This document shows, in pieces, positions 14,487 to 28,741 of a stretch of 43,938 nt of DNA. Position 1 is the stretch's first letter, and the number at the start of each line of letters is the position of its first letter. The notes under the pieces are model-generated. The model made no database searches, was not told where the DNA came from, and saw nothing but the letters and a program-made list of their open reading frames with translations. The translations under genes were made by a program, and so were the position numbers. The DNA is from Craspedostauros australis (lineage: Eukaryota), in assembly GCA_030167865.1 (NCBI GenBank), contig JALAGF010004238.1, forward strand, positions 1-43,938, in the 5' to 3' direction.

Positions 14487-16514
14487 TCATGCGTACATCC
14501 CGCCATCCACCAGTCGTTTGTAGGCCCGACGCCTGGAGCATGTTTCCCACTCCTGCCGACTCACGCTCCATTCTGTGTGTGCAGTCGCGTTGCGCACCAT
14601 CCAACGCGCTCCATCCCACGCGGCACGCAACGGATCTTCCGTGACGCCGACAACCAAGTCCAATTCGTTCGGCACGAGCTGTCGCAGCTCCTTTTGCAAT
14701 CGTTCCTTCAGGTTGGGCAATTGGCAGATGCCGCCCGTCAGCAGGATGCTCTTGTACAGCGCGGGACGGTACGGTTTGGGACAGCTTTGCACAGCTTGGT
14801 GAACGGCGACGGCCAATCCGACCAGGTCCGTCGTCAGACCGGCATCCAAGGGACGGAAGAGAACTTCGGGAACGGTGAATCGCTCCACAGAGATGCGCAG
14901 CAGCTGCTGTTCCATCTCCATCTCACGTTTGCGGCGTTCTTCTTCGGCGCGCTGTTGCATGATTCGCTGTCGTTTCTGTGCTGGCGTTTCTTCGTCCTCG
15001 TCCTCGTCCTCGTCGTCGGAGTGGATCATATCCGTGGCGTTGTGACTGTCCGTAGCGTCGATATCATTGTCGTCACCACCATCTCCATCTCCATCATCGT
15101 CGTCGTCGTCGTCGTTATCCCCGTCGTTCTCGTTGTAATCGTCATCCTCTTCTTCCTCATCGTCGTCCTCGTTACCCATCGTTGCCGCAGTCACTTCACC
15201 CTGCTTCTGCTCCGCTTCCATCTGCCGTTGCAACTGCGGTGGCAGCTGGATCTGTCCTTCATGCGTCGTCTGATAATCCGGCAGCACGTAATCGCGATCA
15301 TACCTGCGTATCTTGGATTGCCGCGCCAACTGCAGCTCCGCATCATAATCCAACGACACGTACATGAGCCGTTGAAAGACGTCCGTCAAGATGAATTCTT
15401 GATCCATCAAGTTGTACTGTCGGTACGTCATGTAGTACTTCATCATGTTGATCATGTGCCTGCCGCCGATGGGGATGCGGCGGTATGCTGGCTTGTTGCT
15501 TTTGGCATGCGATATGAGCTTGGATTGGAAGGTCGGCACGATCTGTGTGGCGCTCCAACCCAGATCGACGCAGACGCAGGTTTTGTAATCGTCATGACGA
15601 TTTCGCACGGAGGCGCAGGCTTGGGAGACGGCGAATCCGACATGCGAAACGCCGAAATCTTCCATCCAAACATACATGATCTGATCCAGGAGGATCCTTG
15701 GATAGTTGGGTGGCAAAAGGAGCAGGACCGCCAATGCATGTGATGGTACCAGGCTTGCGTTGCCGTTCTGTTCGGCATCCATCGTATTCTCGGTTGCATT
15801 GTCGTCGTCCGTCGTTGCCGCAGCTTGCTGCTTCCGCTTCCTCTTGTTGGCGGCCGCCTTGCCTTTCTTGCCGCCCCCGACCATCCAACCAAGCGCCTTG
15901 GCAGCTTCGGAGTTGGTGGGATACGAGACATTGAGCTTGTTCAGTACCCGCTTCCATACCTGCGCTTGATTTCCCATGTTACAAATGATGCCGCGTTCCG
16001 TGGATCGGGTGTGCGAATGCAGGGACGTGGGGTTGTTGACCTGGGACAGTTCATCGCCCACTAGCACCGTAAGCTGATGTGGCAGCCGGGCCGTGACGTT
16101 CGGCAACATTTGCGCCTGCTCATCAGAGTGCGCCCAACCGTACTTGAGAGTGCTGCCACCGTTGTCGATGATGATGGTCGCTGTTGGTGGTGGCGTGGAT
16201 GCTGGCGGCGTTGCTTCTTCTTTTGCCTTTGTTTTTGCTTTTGCCTTCGTCCTCGAGCGAGATCTGGCGCCGGTTGCTCTCGCCTTGGTGGCTGATGGTG
16301 GCGGTGATGCCACTGATGCTGATGCTGCTGCATCTTCCTCTGTTGCTACTGCTGCTGCTGCCGCTGCTACTGCTTGCCTAGTTGTCTTCGGCGATCTCGT
16401 TGCTCGAGATGTCCTCGTTGTCCTGGTGGAGGGAGGCTTCGCGGGTGTGCGTCTCCGTTTGGGGGCAGCCGCCGCCTTTTCCGTCGTGTCTTTCACGCTC
16501 GCTGCTTTTGCCAT
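14487..16514 (-). CDS. ARP6: Actin-related protein 6 (SWR1 complex subunit)
   Basis: IIIDNGGSTLKYGW, VCVDLGWSATQIVP, RRIPIGGRHMINMMK, YRQYNLMDQ, DYVLPDY, ERFTVPEVLFRP and SILLTGG..LPNLKERLQKELRQLVP all follow the Arp6 pattern. Confidence 0.88.
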   Translation of the reverse strand: MAKAASVKDTTEKAAAAPKRRRTPAKPPSTRTTRTSRATRSPKTTRQAVAAAAAAVATEEDAAASASVASPPPSATKARATGARSRSRTKAKAKTKAKEEATPPASTPPPTATIIIDNGGSTLKYGWAHSDEQAQMLPNVTARLPHQLTVLVGDELSQVNNPTSLHSHTRSTERGIICNMGNQAQVWKRVLNKLNVSYPTNSEAAKALGWMVGGGKKGKAAANKRKRKQQAAATTDDDNATENTMDAEQNGNASLVPSHALAVLLLLPPNYPRILLDQIMYVWMEDFGVSHVGFAVSQACASVRNRHDDYKTCVCVDLGWSATQIVPTFQSKLISHAKSNKPAYRRIPIGGRHMINMMKYYMTYRQYNLMDQEFILTDVFQRLMYVSLDYDAELQLARQSKIRRYDRDYVLPDYQTTHEGQIQLPPQLQRQMEAEQKQGEVTAATMGNEDDDEEEEDDDYNENDGDNDDDDDDDGDGDGGDDNDIDATDSHNATDMIHSDDEDEDEDEETPAQKRQRIMQQRAEEERRKREMEMEQQLLRISVERFTVPEVLFRPLDAGLTTDLVGLAVAVHQAVQSCPKPYRPALYKSILLTGGICQLPNLKERLQKELRQLVPNELDLVVGVTEDPLRAAWDGARWMVRNATAHTEWSVSRQEWETCSRRRAYKRLVDGGMYA

Positions 16515-16974
16515 GGTTCACAATCTCACGCGTACTCTAGAGTAGAGGAGGGTGTGACTCTATGCTGCTACGAGTACTGATACGATAGAGTTATCGTCAA
16601 CGTAGCTAAGCCCCTCACCGTATCGGTGCATGCCAGAAAGTGAGGCTGCCAACAACGAAGATCAGCGCGGAGTTTGTTTGGTGTGTGTTGTGCAAAAGTC
16701 ACTCTTGTTTCGCTCGGAGAGTTGAGCAAGATCTAATCGAACGAATCGGAGATGGCCATTTTGGCGCCAGAATCCAGCAAAATCGATCATCGAGATCCTC
16801 GTGTTCTGTTTCTCGTGATGACTGCGGTCTTTCCGTGGGAGCATCATCGCTTGTGATCGACTATTGATGCCACAAGCAAATCACCACATGCCTCTTCCTA
16901 TTCATCTCATAGAGAAAGTTGATCATTTCCCACAAGCCAAGTATCAAAAGAGACATCCAAAAGAAACGTCCAAC

Positions 16975-18138
16975 ATGATCTCTTCCTTCACACAACGCAT
17001 CCCATCCAACTGCAGAATCTGGACACGAACTCGCTGGCTTCGACCATCGTCATTGACCTCATTATCATCACCATTGTCGTCGTCGTCTTCGTCATCGTCA
17101 TCGTCGTCATCGTCATCGTCGTCATCTGTGAGCGAAGCCACATCCACATTCCGATCCTTCACAACATCAAGAACAGCACAGAAAGCAGCAGCAGCATCGC
17201 CGGCATCATCGTACCTCCGTATCGACCCAGCTGTACAAGAGGCATTGGACAACCACAAACCCGTCGTCGCTCTCGAATCCACGATCGTCGCGCACGGCTT
17301 CCCTTACCCGGACAACTTCGAATTGGCCTGCACCATAGAAACCATCTTGCGCGACGAGCATGACGTGACACCCGCCACGATTGCCATGCATGACGGCCAA
17401 TGCCGCGTGGGATTATCCGTCGATGAACTGCGGGAACTGGCAACGGCAGGACGCGCCGTCCCCAAATGCTCAACGCGCGACATCCCGTTAATACGCAAAG
17501 GTTGGGCCGCCACGACCGTGGCATCGACCATGCGCATCGCGCACATGGCCGGCATCGCGACCTTCGTGACGGGCGGCACGGGTGGCGTGCATCGCGATGG
17601 GCACAATTCGATGGACATCTCGGCCGATCTCTTGGAATTGTCGCAAACGCCCGTCGTCGTGGTCTCGGCCGGCATTAAGTCCATCTTGGACATCCCGCGC
17701 ACGTTGGAAGTGCTGGAGACGAACGCGGTGCCCACCGTGAGCTGGCAGAGCGACGAATTCCCGGCCTTCTTCTCGCCGCATTCGGGTTGCGCGTCGCCAA
17801 TGCGGATGGATACGGCGAGCGACGTGGCGCGGTCGTACTGTATGGCGCGTGCGTTGGGCATGCGGCAAGGTATGCTTGTCGCCGTACCGAATCAGGATCC
17901 TGCGGGCGAGGCCGTGGAGGATGCCATTCAAGGGGCCTTGCGGGAGGCGGCGCAGCAGAATATCGTTGGTCAAGATGTGACGCCCTTCATCCTGCAGCGT
18001 GTGGCGGAGTTGACGGATGGTGACAGTTTGCGCAGTAACAAGGCGTTGGTACAAGCGAATGCCAAGGTGGGAGCAGCGATCGCCAAGGAGATTGCAATTG
18101 CAGCAGAAGTAGCAGCAGCGGCAGCGTCAGGGCAATGA
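16975..18138 (+). CDS. psuG: Pseudouridine-5'-phosphate glycosidase (PsuG/IndA family), stand-alone, with transit-peptide-like leader
   Basis: Motifs PVVALESTIVAHG, AATTVASTM, FVTGGTGGVHR, DISADLLEL, KSILDIPRTLEVLET, VTPFILQRV and SLRSNKALV. The R/S/T-rich leader starts at ATG 16975. Confidence 0.93.
   Translation: MISSFTQRIPSNCRIWTRTRWLRPSSLTSLSSPLSSSSSSSSSSSSSSSSSVSEATSTFRSFTTSRTAQKAAAASPASSYLRIDPAVQEALDNHKPVVALESTIVAHGFPYPDNFELACTIETILRDEHDVTPATIAMHDGQCRVGLSVDELRELATAGRAVPKCSTRDIPLIRKGWAATTVASTMRIAHMAGIATFVTGGTGGVHRDGHNSMDISADLLELSQTPVVVVSAGIKSILDIPRTLEVLETNAVPTVSWQSDEFPAFFSPHSGCASPMRMDTASDVARSYCMARALGMRQGMLVAVPNQDPAGEAVEDAIQGALREAAQQNIVGQDVTPFILQRVAELTDGDSLRSNKALVQANAKVGAAIAKEIAIAAEVAAAAASGQ
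17075..17127 (+). repeat. (TCN)n trinucleotide run encoding poly-Ser in the PsuG leader
   Basis: The run tcgtcgtcgtcttcgtcatcgtcatcgtcgtcatcgtcatcgtcgtcatct is directly visible. Confidence 0.8.
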
Positions 18139-18412: not shown

Positions 18413-19687
18413 TTAAAGTTCTCCGCCCAGCCGCATCATCTTTTCATCCTCTTCGTCCATAATTTCCATGAGGATTTCCTGTTCAATTTCTTCCGCCGTT
18501 TTTGCTGGCTTGGTTTCCTCCTTGGTTGGTTCATCATCTGGAGTTGTTGATGTTGCCGCCTCCTCATCAGCTTCTTCTTCCTTTGCGTCTTCTGCAAGCT
18601 CAGCTGCTTTTTCATCTTCTTGTTGCTCTGCCGCTATTGGTTCCTCTTCGGCCTTGTCATCTGTCTTGTCATCTGCCTTGTCATCGGCAGCAACAGATTC
18701 ATCTGCAGCCTCGTTGTCGACAACCGGTTCACGAGCAACCGGATCTTCGGCGGATTCAGGGGTAGTTTCTGGAACTGTCTCCTCTTCCAGTTCCTCCTTC
18801 GTTGATTCCGCTGTGTCCGCTGGAATTTCTTCTTCTGCTGCTGGAGCATCGTCTTCGGCTGGCTTTGACTCTGTATCCACATCTGCGGACTCGGCAGATT
18901 CTTGCGTGAGCTGCTCTTCGGTTGGTTCTTCAGCGCTGTCGGCGTCTTTTGGAGTTGCGCCATCGGCCACAGCCTCTGATCCAGAATCTGCTTCGTCTTC
19001 ATCGTCTGCGGCAGGTGTCTCTTCCTCTTCTTCTGTCGTAGCTGCAGATTCTGCTGCCTCATCTTTATTTTCGGTCACCTCAGTCTCCTCCGCAACTTCC
19101 TCTTCTTCGACTGCTGGCGTGTCTTCCTCTGAAAGATCTTCGACAATTTTTTCGGCAGCCTCTTCGTCCTTGACTTCATCCTCTGCTTCTTCTTGTTCTG
19201 CTTCAGCCTCAACTTGATCAACTTGCGCCGCCGCGGCAACGACTTCTTCTCCTTCTGTCTCCACAACAACCGCCTTGGGTTGAATGTGAAAGGTCACCCC
19301 GGCCGTCGCATTCTGAAGAACGGCCGTGGGCGGCGCGTGACTCCGAACGGCAAATCCGCGCAATGCCAACAACGTGCCGCCGACCGTCAGAAAGGCAATG
19401 AAGAAGACATCGTGCGTCCACTTGCGACGGCGTGTGCGATCGATGACGTTGCTGGCATCGTAAAAATTGTCGTCTTCTTCGGGTTTGGTCGTCTGGAAGA
19501 TCTCCGACGGAATGTCGTCGTCGTCGTCTGGCACCGGCGGCTGGTAGAAACTGCCGCGCGTTCGCACAGAGGCAACGGTCTCGTTGTCATTGACCTTGTG
19601 CGGATCGCAGAATCCGCCGAACAGTTTCATCAGAGGAGAAGTTGCTTTGCGGCTCTTGCGGCCTTTGCTATTCTTGACGCTTCCCAT
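18413..19687 (-). CDS. Single-pass membrane protein with long Glu/Ala/Asp-rich low-complexity domain, unknown function
   Basis: A 424-aa ORF. Basic RTRRRK precedes the hydrophobic segment VFFIAFLTVGGTLLAL, followed by about 280 acidic residues and the C-terminus MMRLGGEL. Confidence 0.7.
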   Translation of the reverse strand: MGSVKNSKGRKSRKATSPLMKLFGGFCDPHKVNDNETVASVRTRGSFYQPPVPDDDDDIPSEIFQTTKPEEDDNFYDASNVIDRTRRRKWTHDVFFIAFLTVGGTLLALRGFAVRSHAPPTAVLQNATAGVTFHIQPKAVVVETEGEEVVAAAAQVDQVEAEAEQEEAEDEVKDEEAAEKIVEDLSEEDTPAVEEEEVAEETEVTENKDEAAESAATTEEEEETPAADDEDEADSGSEAVADGATPKDADSAEEPTEEQLTQESAESADVDTESKPAEDDAPAAEEEIPADTAESTKEELEEETVPETTPESAEDPVAREPVVDNEAADESVAADDKADDKTDDKAEEEPIAAEQQEDEKAAELAEDAKEEEADEEAATSTTPDDEPTKEETKPAKTAEEIEQEILMEIMDEEDEKMMRLGGEL

Positions 19688-20601: not shown

Positions 20602-22384
20602 TTAAAGGGAGCTTGGCTTCAATGACATCACACCCTCCCACGAAGCTCCTCCGTCCAAGGTCACTGGGTCGAACTGTAGGCACGGATGCATTGTGATGAA
20701 TAAAGAGATCAAGGCATGTGAGATGAGGGGATGAGCACAAGTCAACGCAAAGTTCTGCCAACAATGTTGATGAACTTCCACGACGCCCATCGCAACAAAC
20801 CAAATCAACATGGCTCAATTCCACCCGAAGCGCATCAATCTCAACTTACCTTCACACTCTCGACGCAGACGAAGTTGTTGTATCCCATGCCCTCGTCGCC
20901 GTATGGGTTCCAGATCACGGTGTCCTCCCATCCGGCGCTGTTCACGACGGCGAGCTGCGCAAGTCGTTGCGAAGGTTGTTACGAAGGTCATTGCGATGGA
21001 TCGTGTGGTGTTGGAAGTTCAGTTGAGTGGATCAGGTCGTGTGGAGTAGAGTATTCCATTTGGAAACACCAGTTTGCATTATTCCCAGCAAATAGAAAAC
21101 AACAAAACGATTGAAGGTGAGAGACGGTAGGTACAAAGTCATTCAGTCATTCATCCTTTCCAGTCACAACTTGCAAACACTCCACTTACTGCCTTGCCGG
21201 TGCCGGCATCATTGAGCACAGGATCGTTGACGCCCATGTACACGCGGTCGTATTCTTCCGAGATGGTGATGGCGCTGCGATCCTCCGTCTGCGTCTCATC
21301 GGCGACCTTGTTCAAGAACTCCTTGCCCTCAAAGCTGCCCGTGATCTCGAGCTTGTCCAATGCCGACACGGTGAAGTAGGAATGCAAAGCGGCCTGGAAA
21401 TCGAAGGACTCCTCGGCCTGCTTGTTTTCGACCAGCATCTGGGTCTTCAATTCGTCGGATTCCAAAGTCACGGTGAAGGTGCAGACGAAGTCCTTGTCCC
21501 ACATCTCCTTGGTGTAGTCGTTGGGGACCAATTCCAAGGCGACCGAAGTCTCGGACATGGACTTGACGGTCCACTCCACGTTGCGGGCGAAGCCGTGCTG
21601 TTGGATCTCGCCAGGTCCGAACTGGATTTATCACATGCGAGTTGAATTGTATTGGGTGGGCATCATCGTCATTTTGCATGTTGCGAGACGTGCAGAAAGT
21701 GGATGGCATGAGCATGAGTGAGAGGCATGTTCTCCAATTGCGAGAGGACAGAGGCAGATTGAAGCACTGCACTAATACTCACATGGCAAACAGCAGAGGG
21801 AGTAACCGGGCATCGGGCTTTGTCACCATTCCATCCAATGGTGCGAAAACGAGTCATCCATTTTCCACAACACCATGCACCGCTCTGTTCCATTTCACCC
21901 CACTCAATGCTACAAGCAGCAAAAAAAGTTGCTCGCAATTCATAGATTAACACAGAACCCCAGAGCATCATCAGCGCCGACTCACTTGCGGCCAACAGTG
22001 GGAAAGTCCACCCGAAATTGGCTTTGATCCGTCGGTCTTGGCATCGGGACGCACGGCGATGTATTCGACACCGTCAGCGACGTAGGATGTGACGACGCCA
22101 CCGAACAGGAAGATATCGGAGGTGGCATCACCGTTGACGAGCTTGACATATTCCAATCCATGCTCGTTGGTCATGAGGCCGGAGGCAGCGTCGGCGGCTG
22201 GGGCATCGGAATCACCGAATCCGCGCTTCGCGTTCCACTTGGTGCGCGAGGAGACCTTGTCGCGTGCGCGGCTGGCATCGAGGGCCGTGGTGGAGCGGGC
22301 GACGCCGGATGGGGTCTGAACGGTGAAGGCCGAGGTGGAGGCCACCATGGAGGTGGCGAGGAAGGAGATCAGGGAGAGCTTCAT
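20602..22384 (-). CDS. Plastid-targeted aldose-1-epimerase / glucose-6-phosphate 1-epimerase family protein; exons 22384-21986, 21621-21190, 20954-20850, 20673-20602
   Basis: Three phase-0 GT-AG introns give KPISGGLSHCWPQ|FGPGEIQQHGFARN, FQAALHSYF, EEYDRVY and DTVIWNPY...NNFVCVESVK|FDPVTL. The bipartite presequence is MKLSLISFLATSMVASTSA-FTVQ. Confidence 0.9.
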
Positions 22385-22983
22385 GATGGATTGGTCTGGT
22401 GTTGTTTTGGATCCGAGTGTTGGAGTGACTTTTTGTGAATCGTTGCTGGTTGTTGGATTGTTGGGTGATGTCGATGGCTACGGACACCATGCGCTCTTGC
22501 TCATGTGGCTCTTTCCATCTTCGTTCGCTTCGTCTCTGGATGCGTTGATTTCCACATGTGTTCGTGTGTGATGTGTTGGTGTGGCGAAGAGGTGTCACAA
22601 AGCAACACACGATGCCATTTTGATTGGTGCGTACGCACGACAATTTGTGAGGATCTGAGAATCTTCGGAATCTTTTGTTCGTGATTTGTTTCGTGTTCGT
22701 GAATGCACGAGAGAATTGGGTCGATGGAATCGAATAGATCAAACCAAGTCCCACAACCACTTTCGCACCACGACACAACAGAACACGACCAAAAACCACA
22801 CAAGAAGACAAGAGAAACAACGCGCCGTTTGCGAAACGCTTCAGCGATCTCACGAACCCAACCTGCATCTCTCTTGTTTCATCACTTCGTCATCGTTGCT
22901 TCACATTGAACAGTATCCTCAAACCATACGCCATACATCCAGCAACAAGAGCATTATCAAGAGCAGCAGTATTCATTTCGCAC

Positions 22984-23010
22984 CGTATCGTATCGTATCG
23001 TATCGTATCG
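22984..23010 (+). repeat. (CGTAT)5 microsatellite in the 5' region of the TMEM128-like gene
   Basis: The sequence cgtatcgtatcgtatcgtatcgtatcg is directly visible. Confidence 0.85.
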
Positions 23011-23047
23011 CGCTAGCACAATCCACAGCAGCACAGCGATAAGCAAG

Positions 23048-23940
23048 ATGACAGACGTCGAATCCACACAAGAAACAGCAACGACGAGACCGAACCAGGT
23101 CAACAATCCATACGCGTCCGGCATTCGAGTCAATTCCACCTACAGCCCGGTCAATGTCTTCAAACGATTCGCATACATGGGGATCTGCGCGTACGGGCTG
23201 CATCATTTCCGAGTCTATGACGCCGTCATGAAATCCGTCGACGTACACCATGGGTGGTTCAAGTTTGGTCTCGCAGTGACATCGGGTACGTGGTTGCGAG
23301 GGAAAGTGAGAGCAAGTACTATGCTCTGTTCTATTATACTATACTCTATTCTGCGATGGAAGATACATCTTTGCGATGGATACATCGTTATCGCAACATC
23401 ACAATAGAGGTGAAGTGTTGGAACACTTTCAGTTCGCCGAGACATGAGAATCTTAGTGGACATTGAAACAGAGTCAACAAGCCAACCCTCACGATAACAT
23501 TGCCTTTGCGCTTGACCTTGCTCTTGGGATGCCTCGCAATATCTGCACCTTTCGCACTTTTTCTATTCTCTGCTTTGCTATCTTAATTCCCTTGGACTTT
23601 GCTCTATTGCATCCATACTCGACGATGACACACATACTTGTACGCACACGCAGTGCTACTCCTCGTGAAAGCCTACGTCGAGCTGTACGCCGGCAAGATG
23701 AAGAAGCAAACGGTGGAATACAAGAACTTCAGAAACAGCACCCACGCAGTGATGATATTGATACTGATATCGTCCATTGCCTTCAATGTCGCGCTGTGGC
23801 CGAAGTATGGATCCACATCCCTGCTGATCATGACGTTGGTGGGAGTTGGTCTAGTCAATTTCTGCATGCTCATGCCGACGGAGGTTCAAAACTTGGCGGC
23901 CTTCGTTTTGTTCACCTTCTTTCTTCAAGAATACCAATAA
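23048..23940 (+). CDS. TMEM128-like small polytopic membrane protein; exons 23048-23285 and 23654-23940
   Basis: A phase-1 intron (GTACGT...CGCAG) joins LAVTS to VLLLVKAYVELY, giving 174 aa. SSIAFNVALWPKYG resembles the TMEM128 motif 'FNIALW'. Confidence 0.75.
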
Positions 23941-24272
23941 AAGCGGAACAGGTATGATGCTACGGAGACGATGCAGTGGTGGCAAAGTCGGCTTGCCAAG
24001 CAGCACCACAATGCACATGATGAACGCGGAACAGCAACGTCCAGTTGAAAGGTGTGATTTGTGATGATAGAAAATGAACTACCCTATTCAATTTACATCA
24101 GGATTTTAGATCTATTCATTTATTCGTTCGTCTGCTGATTCGTTTGTTGATCCGCTTCTTGAAAGGTTCGTCAATGATCCTTGTCATTGGCATCGTGAGA
24201 CGGTACGGATACCTTCGGTGAAGTCGTCTCTCGCTTTCGCCGTTTGCTTGTTCTGGTCGTGAGGATCTCTGT

Positions 24273-24569
24273 TTACTCGGTCTTCTCCTCTTCCTTGGCT
24301 GGCTCCTCGGTTTCTTCCTCCGCAGCAGCATCCTCAGTCTCTTCGTCCTCCTCGGTGGCCTCAGCTTCTTCCTCGTCAGCGGCATCGGAAGACTTCTCAT
24401 CGCCGAATCCACGCTTTTCGTTCCACTTTGTTCTGGAGGCGACCTTGTCACGCGCTCGGCTGGCATCCAGAGAGGTCGTCATGCGGGATGGCTGACCGAC
24501 AATGGAGAATGCCGATGCCATGGCGACGATGGTGGCGAGGACGGCAAGGATGGTGATAGACTTCATCAT
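24273..24569 (-). CDS. Small plastid-targeted protein (98 aa): conserved basic motif plus acidic tail
   Basis: The signal peptide ends in the canonical ASA-F site. The motif TTSLDASRARDKVASRTKWNEKRGFGD is shared with the epimerase, and the tail is Glu-rich. Confidence 0.8.
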   Translation of the reverse strand: MMKSITILAVLATIVAMASAFSIVGQPSRMTTSLDASRARDKVASRTKWNEKRGFGDEKSSDAADEEEAEATEEDEETEDAAAEEETEEPAKEEEKTE

Positions 24570-25103
24570 GGTGGTTGTATTTGTAATGTTCTGTGGACCT
24601 GTGAGCAGAGCTGAGTTTGTGTGGTAGGAGTTGTGTGTTGTACGACTATTGAATGCTTGTTGGCGTGTGTGCGTGATGGGTTAATGTTGATGTTGGTGAA
24701 GATGAATGCGTTTTGATGGCTGACGACGAAGAGAGGAGAGGTGAGTGAAAGAAGTGTGTGGTTTTTGAATGGTTGGGTGATGGCCTTCTTTTTGGGGGTG
24801 TTCTTGCTGGACACGTTGTCGCAGCCAAAGAGGGGCAGGAATGCAGGAGTTGGGGGAAAAGATGATCACCCCTAAATATTGTAAAGTTGGTGGACTTGTC
24901 TACTCGTACCTACGCAGAGAGGCAGAGAGAAAAGGAGCGAGGTGGAGGACGCTGCTGATACGACCTACTCCATCATTCTTTACTCTCTGGGAGGAAGGAA
25001 GATCACAGCATTATAAAGCCCAATGATACAGTATGTTGTGTGATACTCTCCTGTGTAAGTATTCCCTGCAATGCACCAGCAATACCCTGCGCCGCTGAAA
25101 GTC

Positions 25104-26285
25104 TCATGACAGGTACATGTTGATCGAAGGCTTATCCCGCCACAGACCCATCTTTTTGGCACGTTCCGGTTTGGAACAGTTGAGATGCTCGCAGTGATTG
25201 TTGTGCAGCACGACGACGTCCTTGCTCAGAGTGTGTTCATTTATATTCTCTTCCCCAATCCCTTTGAACATTGTGCCCACGGGGAACAGGGAATCGTCGA
25301 GGAGTTTGTGCCTGATGGCGTCGCCCATCTTGCGCACGACGTGATTGAATGCAAGCTGGTTGTAATTGGCGTGTGGTCGTCCCTCGATGTAGGATCGCCA
25401 CCGTCGGATGCAGCTGATGGAAGCAGGAGTCGGTCGCATGACGATGAGACCGGAATTGTACGGCCCCGTTGTTTCCGTCTTAGCATCGGCGGCCCAGAAA
25501 TCGTAGTCGCCGCGCATGTACGGGCGCGGGTCCTTTAAAATGATAGTGTCCAAATCGATGAACACGAGCCGAAAGGAATTCACATCGAACGATCCGATCT
25601 CGTTGGCGATGACGTCTGGATCCAGCGCTCCCGTCATGGCCGCGCCCGTGACGCTCTCGAGCTCGTTGATCAGGATGGAAGGGCGGCGGCTCACCATGTG
25701 CTGGAAGCGTTTCCGGTCAGAGTAATCGAATCGTCCAAAGCCCGTGACCCCAGTGTTGTTGTATTTGGAGCCAACGTCCCAGGCCTTCTTGACGTCGATC
25801 AATTTGGAAGGCACGAACTTTTCGTACATGACTTCATCTTCTGCATAGAGGACGACGTTGGCGTACCGCATCGGCGGACACCCGTCGTTGCTATTTGCGC
25901 TGCGTGGTGCGTGCTGTTCTCGCTGCTCGGGCGTCGCAGGGCACATACCCACCTCCACGCAGTGGATGTACCAATTCAGAAAATCCTCTTCGTAGCCATT
26001 GTTCCCGGACACCACAATCCGCCACTGGACGTCGGGGTCGATGCATGGGCCATCCAACGGATAACGTTGTCGGTGTTGCTGCTGCTGTTGTTGTTGATGA
26101 GGAGTCGTCTCTTCAGGAGCATGACCCGCGATCGCGATCGCATCCGTAGGTGGTAGCACCAGGGTGCTCGAAATGTACATTGTGAACAACGCGCAGCATT
26201 GTAAGACGCCGATGATCACCAGCAGCTGTCGTCTGCATGTGCATACAACTCGGCTTGGTGCTTTCTTGCCAAGTTGTCTTCTCAT
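25104..26285 (-). CDS. Nucleotide-diphospho-sugar transferase (GT77-like, GT-A fold), type II membrane protein
   Basis: An N-terminal TM is followed by the DxD motif VFIDLDTIILKDP, YNSGLIVMR, NQLAFN, LFPVG and VVLHNN. Confidence 0.82.
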   Translation of the reverse strand: MRRQLGKKAPSRVVCTCRRQLLVIIGVLQCCALFTMYISSTLVLPPTDAIAIAGHAPEETTPHQQQQQQQHRQRYPLDGPCIDPDVQWRIVVSGNNGYEEDFLNWYIHCVEVGMCPATPEQREQHAPRSANSNDGCPPMRYANVVLYAEDEVMYEKFVPSKLIDVKKAWDVGSKYNNTGVTGFGRFDYSDRKRFQHMVSRRPSILINELESVTGAAMTGALDPDVIANEIGSFDVNSFRLVFIDLDTIILKDPRPYMRGDYDFWAADAKTETTGPYNSGLIVMRPTPASISCIRRWRSYIEGRPHANYNQLAFNHVVRKMGDAIRHKLLDDSLFPVGTMFKGIGEENINEHTLSKDVVVLHNNHCEHLNCSKPERAKKMGLWRDKPSINMYLS

Positions 26286-26995: not shown

Positions 26996-28741
26996 ATGTC
27001 AGGCTGCAGAAGTTCATTGGAGACAGAAGGGCGCACACCAACCAGCAACAACAACAACAACAACAACATCATCATCCCATTTGTGAAGAAAGCGACGGTC
27101 ACCATCACTACCATCGTCTGCATGATTCTCAGGCCATCTGCTTCGTTCGCAGTAATCCGGCGATCCGCCTTGCATCCGTGCCATTCCTGCTCGTATCACG
27201 CTGCAGCTACCACAGCAACCAGATACCCCGCCATCCTTCCAGCACAGCCATATCCTCCACATCTGTGGCATTCGACCACAGCTAGATCCATGACAATCTC
27301 ACCTGAAACCATCACCAACGACAACACCATCAGCACGACCAGCATGTCCACATCAACAAACGCCACAACCGCAAGCGACAGCCAACCTTCGCTACCACAA
27401 AACCTCGTCGTCGTCATCGCCGGTTGCACTGGTGTTGGCAAATCCGACGTGGCCGCCACGCTGTGTCGAGACCACAACGGTATGATCGTTTCTGCCGACT
27501 CCGTCCAAGCCTACAAGGGTGTTGAGATTGGTGCCAACAAACCGACGCCCGAAGAACGCAAGATCACGCCGCACATCCTCATCGATGTTGCCGACCACAC
27601 TGAGAATTACAACGCCGCCGAGTGGCGACAAGATTCCATCATGGCAATCGAAGCATTGTCCGGGATTGCAGCAGCGCAAGAAAATGATGACGACAATCCA
27701 CGGCGATCTCAACTTTCCGAAACCATCCAGCAGTTCCGGCAACAGCAGAATTGGACGACGCAAGAACCGTTGTTGCCTGTCGTATGCGGTGGCACCATGA
27801 TGTATTTGCAGTGGTTGGTGCATGGACGACCGGATGCCATGAAACCAACCGATTCGGCGGTTGCCAAAGCGACGTCATTCATCGAACAGTGTCAGCAGGA
27901 AAAGGACTACGCCAAGGCGACGGCGCATGTATCGAGTCTGGGAGATGTCTTTGCCGAACGTGTCAGCATTCTGTGCGGAGAAGATTGGTATCGATTACGT
28001 CGTATCTTGGAAGTTGCGTACACGGCCATGGAAGGTGATACAAACGACAAGGAGAAGCAAGAAGAGATGTTCCGCAAACTTTACACCGGGATCCGTCAAG
28101 GCGGATTGGATACGCTGGGCTACGACGTGCGCTGCTTCTTCTTGTGCCCAGACGATCGCATGAACCACACTCGTGTCGTCGATCAACGATGCGAGCAAAT
28201 GCTGATGCGCGGATTGGTCAAAGAGACTGCCGATCTGCAACTGAATGGCATCTTCCCCGAAATGGCCACGAAGGCCATTGGATATCGACAAACATTGGAT
28301 TACTTGAATCGCGACGACACGAGCAACGACGAGGCCGCGGCCTTCGATGCCTACATCGACGATTTCACGACGGCGACGCGACGGTATGCCAAGAAACAGA
28401 TGGCGTGGTTTCGCAAGGACAAGGATTTCTGCTTCGTCCCCGTGCCGTTGTTGCAGTCCAAGACCGATCGCGTCGCGGTGACGGCGCAAGAAGTCATGCG
28501 GTTGATTGCGATGTCAAGGGACGACTACGAGGCAGAGCTGTCATCACCAAAATCTCAATCGGCGCAAACCAAAAAACGAAATGAAGCGCAAGGCAAGACA
28601 ATGAAGTTTTACAAATTTCAACGGCATCTTTTGACAAAGGGTAGTGCTGAATTGGAACGCGCGCTTCAGGAGGCCATCGAATGCTCGAATCGGATGAGAT
28701 CGAAGCGGAAGAAGTTGGATGGCGTGGCCGAAAGTAACTGA
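26996..28741 (+). CDS. miaA: tRNA dimethylallyltransferase (IPP transferase), probably organelle-targeted
   Basis: P-loop VIAGCTGVGKS, IVSADSVQAYKG..IGANKP, VVCGGTMMYL, YRLRRILEV, KAIGYRQ and TRRYAKKQMAWFR. The N-terminal extension has a hydrophobic stretch followed by SASF. The exact start is uncertain. Confidence 0.93.
   Translation: MSGCRSSLETEGRTPTSNNNNNNNIIIPFVKKATVTITTIVCMILRPSASFAVIRRSALHPCHSCSYHAAATTATRYPAILPAQPYPPHLWHSTTARSMTISPETITNDNTISTTSMSTSTNATTASDSQPSLPQNLVVVIAGCTGVGKSDVAATLCRDHNGMIVSADSVQAYKGVEIGANKPTPEERKITPHILIDVADHTENYNAAEWRQDSIMAIEALSGIAAAQENDDDNPRRSQLSETIQQFRQQQNWTTQEPLLPVVCGGTMMYLQWLVHGRPDAMKPTDSAVAKATSFIEQCQQEKDYAKATAHVSSLGDVFAERVSILCGEDWYRLRRILEVAYTAMEGDTNDKEKQEEMFRKLYTGIRQGGLDTLGYDVRCFFLCPDDRMNHTRVVDQRCEQMLMRGLVKETADLQLNGIFPEMATKAIGYRQTLDYLNRDDTSNDEAAAFDAYIDDFTTATRRYAKKQMAWFRKDKDFCFVPVPLLQSKTDRVAVTAQEVMRLIAMSRDDYEAELSSPKSQSAQTKKRNEAQGKTMKFYKFQRHLLTKGSAELERALQEAIECSNRMRSKRKKLDGVAESN

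Follow-up and report, generated by a model that had tools for sequence, protein, structure and literature searches.

An apparently undescribed N-terminal helical module common to predicted plastid enzymes and small acidic proteins of diatoms

Introduction

Two genes within a 43,938-nucleotide stretch of the Craspedostauros australis genome (contig JALAGF010004238.1 of GenBank assembly GCA_030167865.1; hereafter, the window) encode nearly the same short basic peptide close to their N-termini. One is a glucose-6-phosphate 1-epimerase-like gene, and the other encodes an acidic protein of only 98 residues. The shared block of 27 residues contains a 22-residue module that is very probably a conserved helical peptide, located outside of catalytic folds at a transit-peptide cleavage consensus, and common to unrelated plastid-targeted enzymes and to proteins that carry no cargo. 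A preliminary description of this locus had pointed out the block in the two window genes. The finding is larger than a two-gene curiosity, as it concerns an N-terminal module of diatom plastid proteins along with a stand-alone family of acidic carriers, which together are apparently undescribed.

Diatoms account for a large share of ocean carbon fixation, and the organisation of their plastid stroma is poorly understood. We know of no general plastid sorting or docking motif, beyond the import presequence, that has been described in diatoms.

Results

A block under strong purifying selection

The features that carry the block are as follows, with the basis for each assignment given last.

20602..22384, minus strand: glucose-6-phosphate 1-epimerase-like gene, 335 codons, four exons (22384-21986, 21621-21190, 20954-20850 and 20673-20602, minus strand, stop included); Pfam, X1 contig, orthologs
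22328..22384, minus strand: epimerase signal peptide, residues 1-19, with its TSA end before F20; ASA-FAP rule, read from the sequence
22277..22327, minus strand: transit-peptide-like part of the epimerase, residues 20-36 (F...TTALD); cleavage consensus, composition
22211..22276, minus strand: epimerase module copy, residues 37-58 (ASRARDKVSSRTKWNAKRGFGD); pair comparison, orthologs, AlphaFold2 (AF2)
24273..24569, minus strand: small gene, 98 codons, single exon, stop included; open reading frame (ORF), protein sets, colinear contig
24399..24464, minus strand: small-gene module copy, residues 36-57 (ASRARDKVASRTKWNEKRGFGD); pair comparison, AF2 helix
24276..24398, minus strand: acidic low-complexity tail of the small protein, residues 58-98; predicted local distance difference test (pLDDT), charge

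The block spans residues 32-58 of the epimerase (22291-22211, minus strand) and residues 31-57 of the small protein (24479-24399, minus strand). The two copies agree at 24 of 27 residues and 64 of 81 nucleotides, such that 17 base differences result in only three residue changes. Different codons are used at 11 of the 24 identical residues and the same codon at the other 13. On recount, the positions, the residue matches and the number of codon differences are exactly those of the preliminary description, which had also held that the signal peptides and downstream sequences of the two genes have diverged. This too holds, as a BLASTP alignment of the two N-terminal ORFs (36/57 identities, E = 8e-19) stops at the Asp that closes the block, and the 20 signal-peptide codons of the pair give neutral-looking values for nonsynonymous (dN, 0.68) and synonymous (dS, 0.57) divergence. 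At the DNA level, the likeness between the two genes is limited to one 72-nt stretch (82%, E 3e-16).

Over the 27 block codons, the Nei-Gojobori method (NG86) gives a dN of 0.068 and a dS of 1.55, for a ratio of 0.04, and YN00 gives a ratio of 0.025. Across estimates, dS lies between 1.1 and 2.1 and is saturated. When the 17 base differences were placed at random, none of 20,000 trials produced three or fewer residue changes. The likeness of the two blocks is old and is maintained by selection on the protein, in agreement with the purifying selection originally proposed. Saturated synonymous change and a DNA match of only 72 nt rule out both a recent duplication and a recent gene conversion.

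A basic tryptophan-centred helix at a predicted cleavage site

The 27-residue block consists of five residues that end the transit peptide (TT[AS]LD), which are the last five of the epimerase transit part, followed by the 22-residue, Trp-centred basic helix, approximately AS[RK]-x3-K-[IV]AS-R-[ST]K-W-[AL]E-x-RG-[YF]G. Among 149 distinct copies, the consensus is S-S-[VT]-[VAS]-L-[END]-A-S-[RK]-N-[KRA]-[QD]-K-[IV]-A-S-R-[TS]-K-W-[AL]-E-[SAK]-R-G-[YF]-G. The regular expression used for selection fixed K13, R17, W20, R/K24 and G/S25, so that their occurrence in 100% of copies is partly by construction. At positions outside of the expression, S8 is present in 100% of copies, S16 in 94%, L5 in 92%, A7 and A15 in 82%, and E22 in 77%. 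In 76 epimerases, the mean share of the commonest residue is 0.57 in the signal peptide, 0.43 in the transit part, 0.73 in the module, 0.32 in the linker and 0.84 in the catalytic domain. The module is thus an island of conservation in these enzymes.

By inspection, both window genes have the diatom bipartite plastid presequence that had been attributed to them, with a signal peptide followed by an aromatic residue (TSA-F in the epimerase, ASA-F in the small protein). The published ASA-FAP rule, in the available text of its source, places signal-peptide cleavage before Phe, Tyr, Trp or Leu (PMC3774753). The same text gives the transit-peptide cleavage consensus as A/S at -3, L at -2 and a small or charged residue at -1, followed by A, S or M, and describes diatom transit peptides as 12-42 residues long (mean 20), rich in Ser/Thr, with 0.3% Asp, 0.6% Glu and a mean net charge of +2.6, ahead of mature N-termini that are net negative over their first 5-6 residues (PMC3774753). 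The window proteins read A-L-D/A-S (epimerase) and S-L-D/A-S (small protein), where the slash marks the predicted cut, and among the 149 copies L is found in 92%, A at +1 in 82% and S at +2 in 100%. From the published consensus, cleavage by the stromal peptidase is predicted between consensus positions 6 and 7. The motif had been placed as a whole after the transit-peptide end; while the site does fit the cleavage consensus, the first five residues of the block belong to the end of the transit peptide.

Upstream of the module lies a part of 22 residues (median), with 31% S+T, 2.7% D+E and 5.6% K+R (approximately +1 per 22 residues). The module has 34% K+R, 6.8% D+E and a charge of about +5, contains a Glu in 77% of distinct copies, and lacks Cys. 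The upstream part behaves as a complete transit peptide and the module does not. In the window genes, the signal peptide, aromatic +1 residue, S/T-rich transit part and L(-2) site all resemble the published bipartite presequence. Transit peptides, however, vary in sequence and contain hardly any Asp or Glu according to the available text, whereas the module is conserved, contains acidic residues and is predicted to be helical.

AF2 models of the small protein predict a signal-peptide helix, a second helix at residues 33-52 (pLDDT ∼70) and a tail with pLDDT below 50 (residues 61-98). In the model of epimerase P0010, built from 76 aligned sequences, a lone helix at residues 37-54 (pLDDT 62-65) is followed by a linker below 50 and then by a confident β-sandwich. 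The predicted location of the motif outside of the epimerase fold, as first suggested, is consistent with this separate helix and low-confidence linker. On a helical wheel, the most conserved residues (L5, S16, R9, W20, K13, R24 and R17) fall within 120 degrees, and the opposite face is formed by small residues and Ile (A7, S8, I14, A15 and A21). Between module and cargo, the linker is variable and either acidic or Ala-rich. The 20 residues after the module have a mean charge of -2.9 in epimerases and -6.8 in 12 small proteins. The layout of the window's small protein is a signal peptide (residues 1-20), transit part (21-35), module (36-57) and acidic tail (58-98), and its mature form is predicted, as it was in the preliminary description, to be the module plus a disordered acidic tail.

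The module across diatoms and cargo proteins

A search with exon 1 of the epimerase returned 434 relatives, and the figures that follow are from the best 120 of the 434. Nearly all are annotated as PF01263 proteins, glucose-6-phosphate 1-epimerases, and the 14 for which an organism is named are all from diatoms, both centric and pennate. The module core, K-x2-[STARV]-R-x2-W-x3-[RK]-[GS], is present in the same place in 117 of these 120 diatom epimerases. The three that lack it are model artefacts: one is N-truncated, one is mis-started, and one is a merged model of 979 residues. In this last model (P0031, Skeletonema marinoi), an epimerase is joined to a long N-terminal coiled-coil-like part (PF05557), which is probably the result of merged gene models and not a true fusion. 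The epimerase of Detonula (Thalassiosirales) also carries the module.

A HMMER search of 1.84 billion representative sequences with a two-sequence profile of the block (E ≤ 1e-3) gave 16 matches, which were the query itself, eight small acidic proteins, three epimerase fragments and four others. These four comprised two EPSP synthase N-termini, one adenylate-kinase-like first exon ending in KLIIAG, and one unassigned. A metagenome scan that used the small-protein alignment as its query found 38 loci: 29 epimerase, five adenylate kinase, two EPSP synthase, one PGK and one Rossmann-like. In the metagenomic carriers, Pfam places the catalytic domains 20-40 residues downstream of the module, and the adenylate kinases are of the plastid type. 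The Rossmann-like carrier (P0157, L038:3329-4315, plus strand) is a 329-residue protein with a GGGRIG motif, from a 90% cluster of n = 10. It falls within no Pfam family, and its best match in a PDB search, 2-dehydropantoate 2-reductase, is not significant (E 0.11). The preliminary description had suggested looking for further carriers, and those found now include epimerases, adenylate kinases, EPSP synthases, PGK, a Rossmann-like protein and small acidic proteins. As the searches were limited by pattern, this cargo list is a lower bound. Judged from these sequences, the module appears to be diatom-wide and to occur on at least five unrelated types of cargo.

The eight small relatives are 85-115 residues long and have the same layout as the window's 98-residue protein, including a polyacidic tail. 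One small-protein relative is found in the MMETSP transcriptome of Licmophora paradoxa, an araphid pennate. The window protein (P0001) is 42-47% identical to 11 small relatives, most of which start with MKS, and 13 columns are invariant (F21, L34, A36, S37, K42, A44, R46, K48, W49, E51, R53, G54 and E89). Ten of these 13 fall within the module or immediately ahead of it. With its signal peptide, short transit part, module and polyacidic tail, the window protein has every part of this arrangement, and we propose the "module plus acidic tail" proteins of approximately 85-115 residues as a new family.

A word-indexed protein search with the small protein retrieved nothing but itself among proteins of similar length (1/3 candidates) and none that were longer (2 candidates); this search overlooked relatives that were later found by the full HMMER scan. 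The ESM Atlas gave a best score of 0.81, too low to count as a lead. Pfam gave only sub-threshold low-complexity matches to the 12 small proteins, with no family in more than 2/12, and has no family over the module. Literature searches with motif strings and with diatom plastid, pyrenoid and presequence topics found no description of the module, and the only paper found to mention the Phaeodactylum epimerase reports its abundance at different CO2 levels and nothing further. The module is therefore apparently undescribed.

Origin of the module copies

The small metagenomic protein P0124 keeps the residues LMTNDE, which form the first strand of the fold in the AF2 model of the epimerase, and its signal peptide resembles those of pennate epimerases. 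This remnant strand points to "module plus acidic tail" genes having been made from the 5' part of an epimerase more than once. Judged from sequence likeness, the small genes were probably born by partial duplication of a module-bearing 5' exon, which P0124 documents directly and which may also apply to the window gene. The old partial duplication put forward in the preliminary description thus stands as to its age and the selection on it, but not as a single event in this genome, as the module is diatom-wide, small proteins of the same family are found elsewhere and P0124 has a separate origin.

One EPSP synthase module is identical at 27 of 28 residues to that of the Detonula epimerase, and epimerase modules are among the nearest relatives of the adenylate kinase and EPSP synthase modules. 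A tree of the 28-residue motif requires 18 changes of cargo label over its 23 non-epimerase tips, as compared to 20-23 with shuffled labels (none of 500 shuffles was as low as 18). From this short alignment it is suggested, and only suggested, that modules may follow lineage at least as much as cargo. The two window copies lie on one strand at a distance of 2.1 kb, and each is the closest match of the other among 176 module instances, with 24/28 residues in common where the next best have 21 and 19. Both have RARDKV, KWN and RGFGD, against the consensus of either family. Given that synonymous sites in the pair are saturated, recent gene conversion does not explain this likeness, and the pattern suggests either that an ancient lineage-specific duplication has been strongly constrained or that the copies co-evolve with a single partner. 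Pairwise values for the module in 22 metagenomic epimerase loci (median dN 0.35, dS 1.43; 138/230 pairs saturated or not computable) are not relied on; the comparison stretch had indels that made its numbers unusable.

Gene models, transcripts and neighbouring features

Exon 2 of the epimerase gene matches the Pfam family Aldose_epim (PF01263) with 72.2 bits (cut-off 27, E 6e-20), which places the protein within that family. Transcript-like support came from X1, the one public run that contains this DNA and is not recorded as RNA. Three contig pieces of X1 join across GT..AG intervals, so the set includes spliced forms. In one contig, the epimerase introns 20955-21189 and 20674-20849 are spliced out. 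The exon 1/2 junction is taken from GT..AG sites and from the continuity of HCWPQ/FGPGE in orthologs (slash at the junction). X1 does not cover epimerase exon 1 or 22127-22754, and this gap is not counted as evidence.

The exact 98-residue protein is present in JGI, MMETSP-derived and EukProt-derived protein sets, and an X1 contig is colinear over 23653-24693, covering the entire small ORF and ∼124 nt upstream of its ATG. From the protein sets and the colinear contig, the small gene is real, and expression, on which the preliminary description had made its case depend, is supported to this extent. The same contig joins 23284 to 23653 on the plus strand and so combines two convergent genes; the region is present in contigs of spliced forms, with either strand of the small ORF a candidate for the transcribed one. 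A single contig running through both genes also indicates that the 3' ends of the small gene and its convergent neighbour probably overlap.

23048..23943, plus strand: TMEM128-like membrane-protein gene, two exons (23048-23284, 23653-23943); contig joint, Pfam
22447-22470 and 24759-24782, minus strand: A/C-rich 24-nt stretches; pairwise DNA comparison

The convergent neighbour is this TMEM128-like gene (Pfam TMEM128, E 4e-10), whose exons the contig joins across GT..AG. It lies between the epimerase and the small gene and outside of the module system. The epimerase had been called the neighbour of the small gene, and although the two are on the same strand and 2.1 kb apart, they are separated by this gene. 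Just upstream of its start, at ∼22972-23016, is a tandem repeat of a CGATA-type pentanucleotide. The 24-nt stretches lie upstream of the start codons of the two module genes and match at 21/24 positions (E 0.001 in a pairwise comparison); they may be a common 5' element or merely reflect the composition of A/C-rich leaders.

Further out, a 424-codon ORF at 18413-19687 (minus strand) is without a Pfam match, contains an extensive stretch rich in Glu, Asp and Ala, and is a further strongly acidic low-complexity protein near the locus. Other neighbouring ORFs match a nucleotide-diphospho-sugar transferase (25104-26285, minus strand), an indigoidine synthase A-like protein (16867-18138, plus strand), IPP transferase (26996-28741, plus strand) and an actin-related protein (14487-16514, minus strand). 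None of these four contains the module.

Discussion

The most plausible reading of the sequence patterns described above is that the module serves in docking, with the microprotein as a decoy or regulator. The module would stay on the mature protein after import, and its basic/Trp face would dock all carriers to one common plastid partner or structure. The microprotein would fill the same site without a cargo, and may act as a competitor, regulator or scaffold. That the module is a docking helix retained on mature proteins, with a common plastid partner, is a claim that we make tentatively, giving it slightly under an even chance.

Several systems have a similar logic. In Chlamydomonas, the Rubisco-binding motif, [D/N]W[R/K]xx[L/I/V/A], is a Trp-containing helix located at protein ends beside disordered linkers that is common to EPYC1 and other, unrelated pyrenoid proteins and directs them to one structure. 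The module departs from this formula, as its Trp is followed by A/L/N-E (position W+1 is A in 74% of copies, L in 12% and V in 5%, and N in the window) in place of R/K, and the lineage and Rubisco type also differ. Encapsulation peptides of bacterial microcompartments are N-terminal helices of ∼18 residues joined by a poorly conserved linker to an enzyme, and are common to several cargos. They share with the module the order of N-terminal helix, linker and different enzymes; however, they are amphipathic with a hydrophobic face, whereas the module has a basic/Trp face and a small-residue face and belongs to a eukaryotic plastid. Chlamydomonas adenylate kinase 3 has a CP12-like, Cys-containing C-terminal regulatory extension. 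This is likewise a short disordered or helical addition that lets a plastid adenylate kinase share a partner, but it is C-terminal and contains Cys, where the module is N-terminal and has none, and no CP12 match was found by Pfam in the 12 small proteins at E ≤ 1. By analogy, the closest systems would be the Rubisco-binding motif and the encapsulation peptides, which the module resembles in the use of one short terminal helix plus linker by many cargos, although the sequences are unrelated.

A number of points weigh against docking. The survival of the module through import is something that we infer. In the available text, mature N-termini have a net negative charge across the first 5-6 residues (PMC3774753), whereas the residues after the predicted site in module proteins, ASRARD or ASRNKQ, are net positive and would make the N-terminus strongly basic. 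At roughly one net charge per 22 residues, the upstream transit part is poor in K+R relative to the published mean of +2.6, and the module could therefore supply charge to the transit peptide. In the text available, Felsner et al. report that the role of a transit peptide can be filled by the mature domain and that the envelope step requires positive charge (PMC3017844). The AF2 helix, predicted with moderate confidence (pLDDT 62-73), starts before the proposed cut site. The cargo set has no obvious common pathway, and the docking partner is putative. The contig that covers the small ORF also carries the convergent TMEM128-like gene, which makes the strand of transcription ambiguous. In the 12 other loci of more than 4.5 kb (eight epimerase, two EPSP synthase and one Rossmann-like), neither strand contained a second module near the carrier gene, so the adjacency of the window genes, for which synteny had been looked to as support, is not conserved in the available data. 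The 28-residue tree is poorly resolved, and cargo labels on it are still somewhat clustered, as no shuffle of the 500 reached 18.

These points on charge bear most directly on the main rival of docking, in which the module is a functional part of the presequence: a basic extension that gives charge or specific recognition for passage of the inner plastid membranes and is later removed or left as a by-product, such that the microprotein matures to little beyond an acidic peptide. This explanation is unlikely, but it has to be taken seriously. It accommodates an upstream part with few basic residues (K+R 5.6%) next to a module of about +5, transit peptides of up to 42 residues with a mean charge of +2.6, and residues after the module that are net negative like mature N-termini described in the available text (PMC3774753). 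It also agrees with the need for positive charge in envelope passage and the ability of mature parts to serve as transit peptides, in what is accessible of that work (PMC3017844). A role in charge, however, leaves the invariant Ser8, Ser16 (94%) and Leu5 (92% of the 149 copies) unexplained; the conservation of Trp20 and Gly25 is not judgeable, both having been required by the selection expression. Saturated synonymous change together with a near-identical protein argues for a sequence-specific role, and the conserved acidic residues of the module are almost absent from diatom transit peptides. The RG[YF]G ending plus a variable residue is a poor fit to the L(-2) consensus, while the site before the module fits. 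Moreover, the module is present on only a subset of plastid proteins, and cargo-less copies that kept the module arose at least twice.

Docking can also be extended to a lineage-wide "client code", which we consider improbable. Here, one 22-residue basic Trp helix would bring enzymes of central carbon, energy and aromatic metabolism (PGK, adenylate kinase, hexose-phosphate epimerase and EPSP synthase) to one stromal structure, with the pyrenoid matrix, the pyrenoid shell and a condensate not yet described as candidates. The polyacidic microproteins, repeatedly born from client 5' exons, would be its scaffold or a tunable competitor. The likeness of modules within a genome would reflect co-evolution with the partner, and the PYCO1 sticker could be a later derivative.

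A special case of docking, in which the module is a Rubisco or pyrenoid sticker that acts like the KWSPRGGS of Phaeodactylum PYCO1 and brings PGK, adenylate kinase and others to the pyrenoid matrix or shell, is very doubtful. Both are short helical elements of the diatom plastid stroma in which Lys-Trp is followed by Arg-Gly and another Gly (K-W...R-G-x-G), and the PYCO1 sticker, according to the available text, is helical when bound to the Rubisco small subunit and has an essential Trp (PMC10288592). PGK uses the product of Rubisco (textbook knowledge). The accessible part of a 2026 pyrenoid review describes no diatom-wide pyrenoid-targeting motif (PMC13655443). The differences, however, are substantial. 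PYCO1 is a repeat protein with six internal tandem stickers (PMC10288592, available text), whereas the module is a single copy at the predicted mature N-terminus of enzymes and ranges over centric and pennate diatoms. The spacing from W to RG is one residue longer in the module, which has no Pro, and in place of the tandem K-W-S-P-R/Q core the window proteins have KWNAKRG and KWNEKRG, once each. A profile of the module gave no match at E ≤ 10 among all PDB chain sequences, and, apart from a short PYCO1 isoform, the available text finds KWSPR/Q nowhere else among Phaeodactylum proteins (PMC10288592). The resemblance to KWSP that the preliminary description had raised as speculation gains no support from these comparisons, and neither does kinship of the module with the PYCO1 sticker. 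The main texts of two diatom pyrenoid proteome preprints do not mention the epimerase, adenylate kinase, PGK or shikimate enzymes, and EPSP synthase and hexose-phosphate epimerase have no known pyrenoid role.

A charge-driven or self-associating sticker is equally doubtful. In this case, the basic helices would have the polyacidic microprotein tails as their ligands, or would pack with one another through their Ala/Ser face, with the microprotein scaffolding a stromal assembly that enzymes join as clients. Charge is segregated in the small proteins (about +5 in the module, a mean of -6.8 in the next 20 residues), the second helix face is composed of small residues (A7, S8, I14, A15 and A21), and the linkers of client enzymes are mildly acidic as well, but nothing in the data requires self-association. 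Finally, a functionless neutral remnant of recent duplication or gene conversion between nearby genes, as the 2.1-kb spacing, common strand and mutual nearest relationship among 176 instances might suggest, is already refuted by a saturated dS of 1.1-2.1, a dN/dS of 0.03-0.04, DNA likeness limited to 72 nt and conservation of the module on other proteins in centric and pennate diatoms.

As a conserved helix on unrelated enzymes and on stand-alone acidic carriers, the module offers a concrete handle on the organisation of the diatom stroma. Either a docking or an import role bears on annotation. Should the module act in import, it would represent the first subclass of transit peptides in complex plastids that is sequence-specific. 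Should it serve as a docking tag, a new level of plastid organisation would come to light, along with a portable targeting peptide for engineering.

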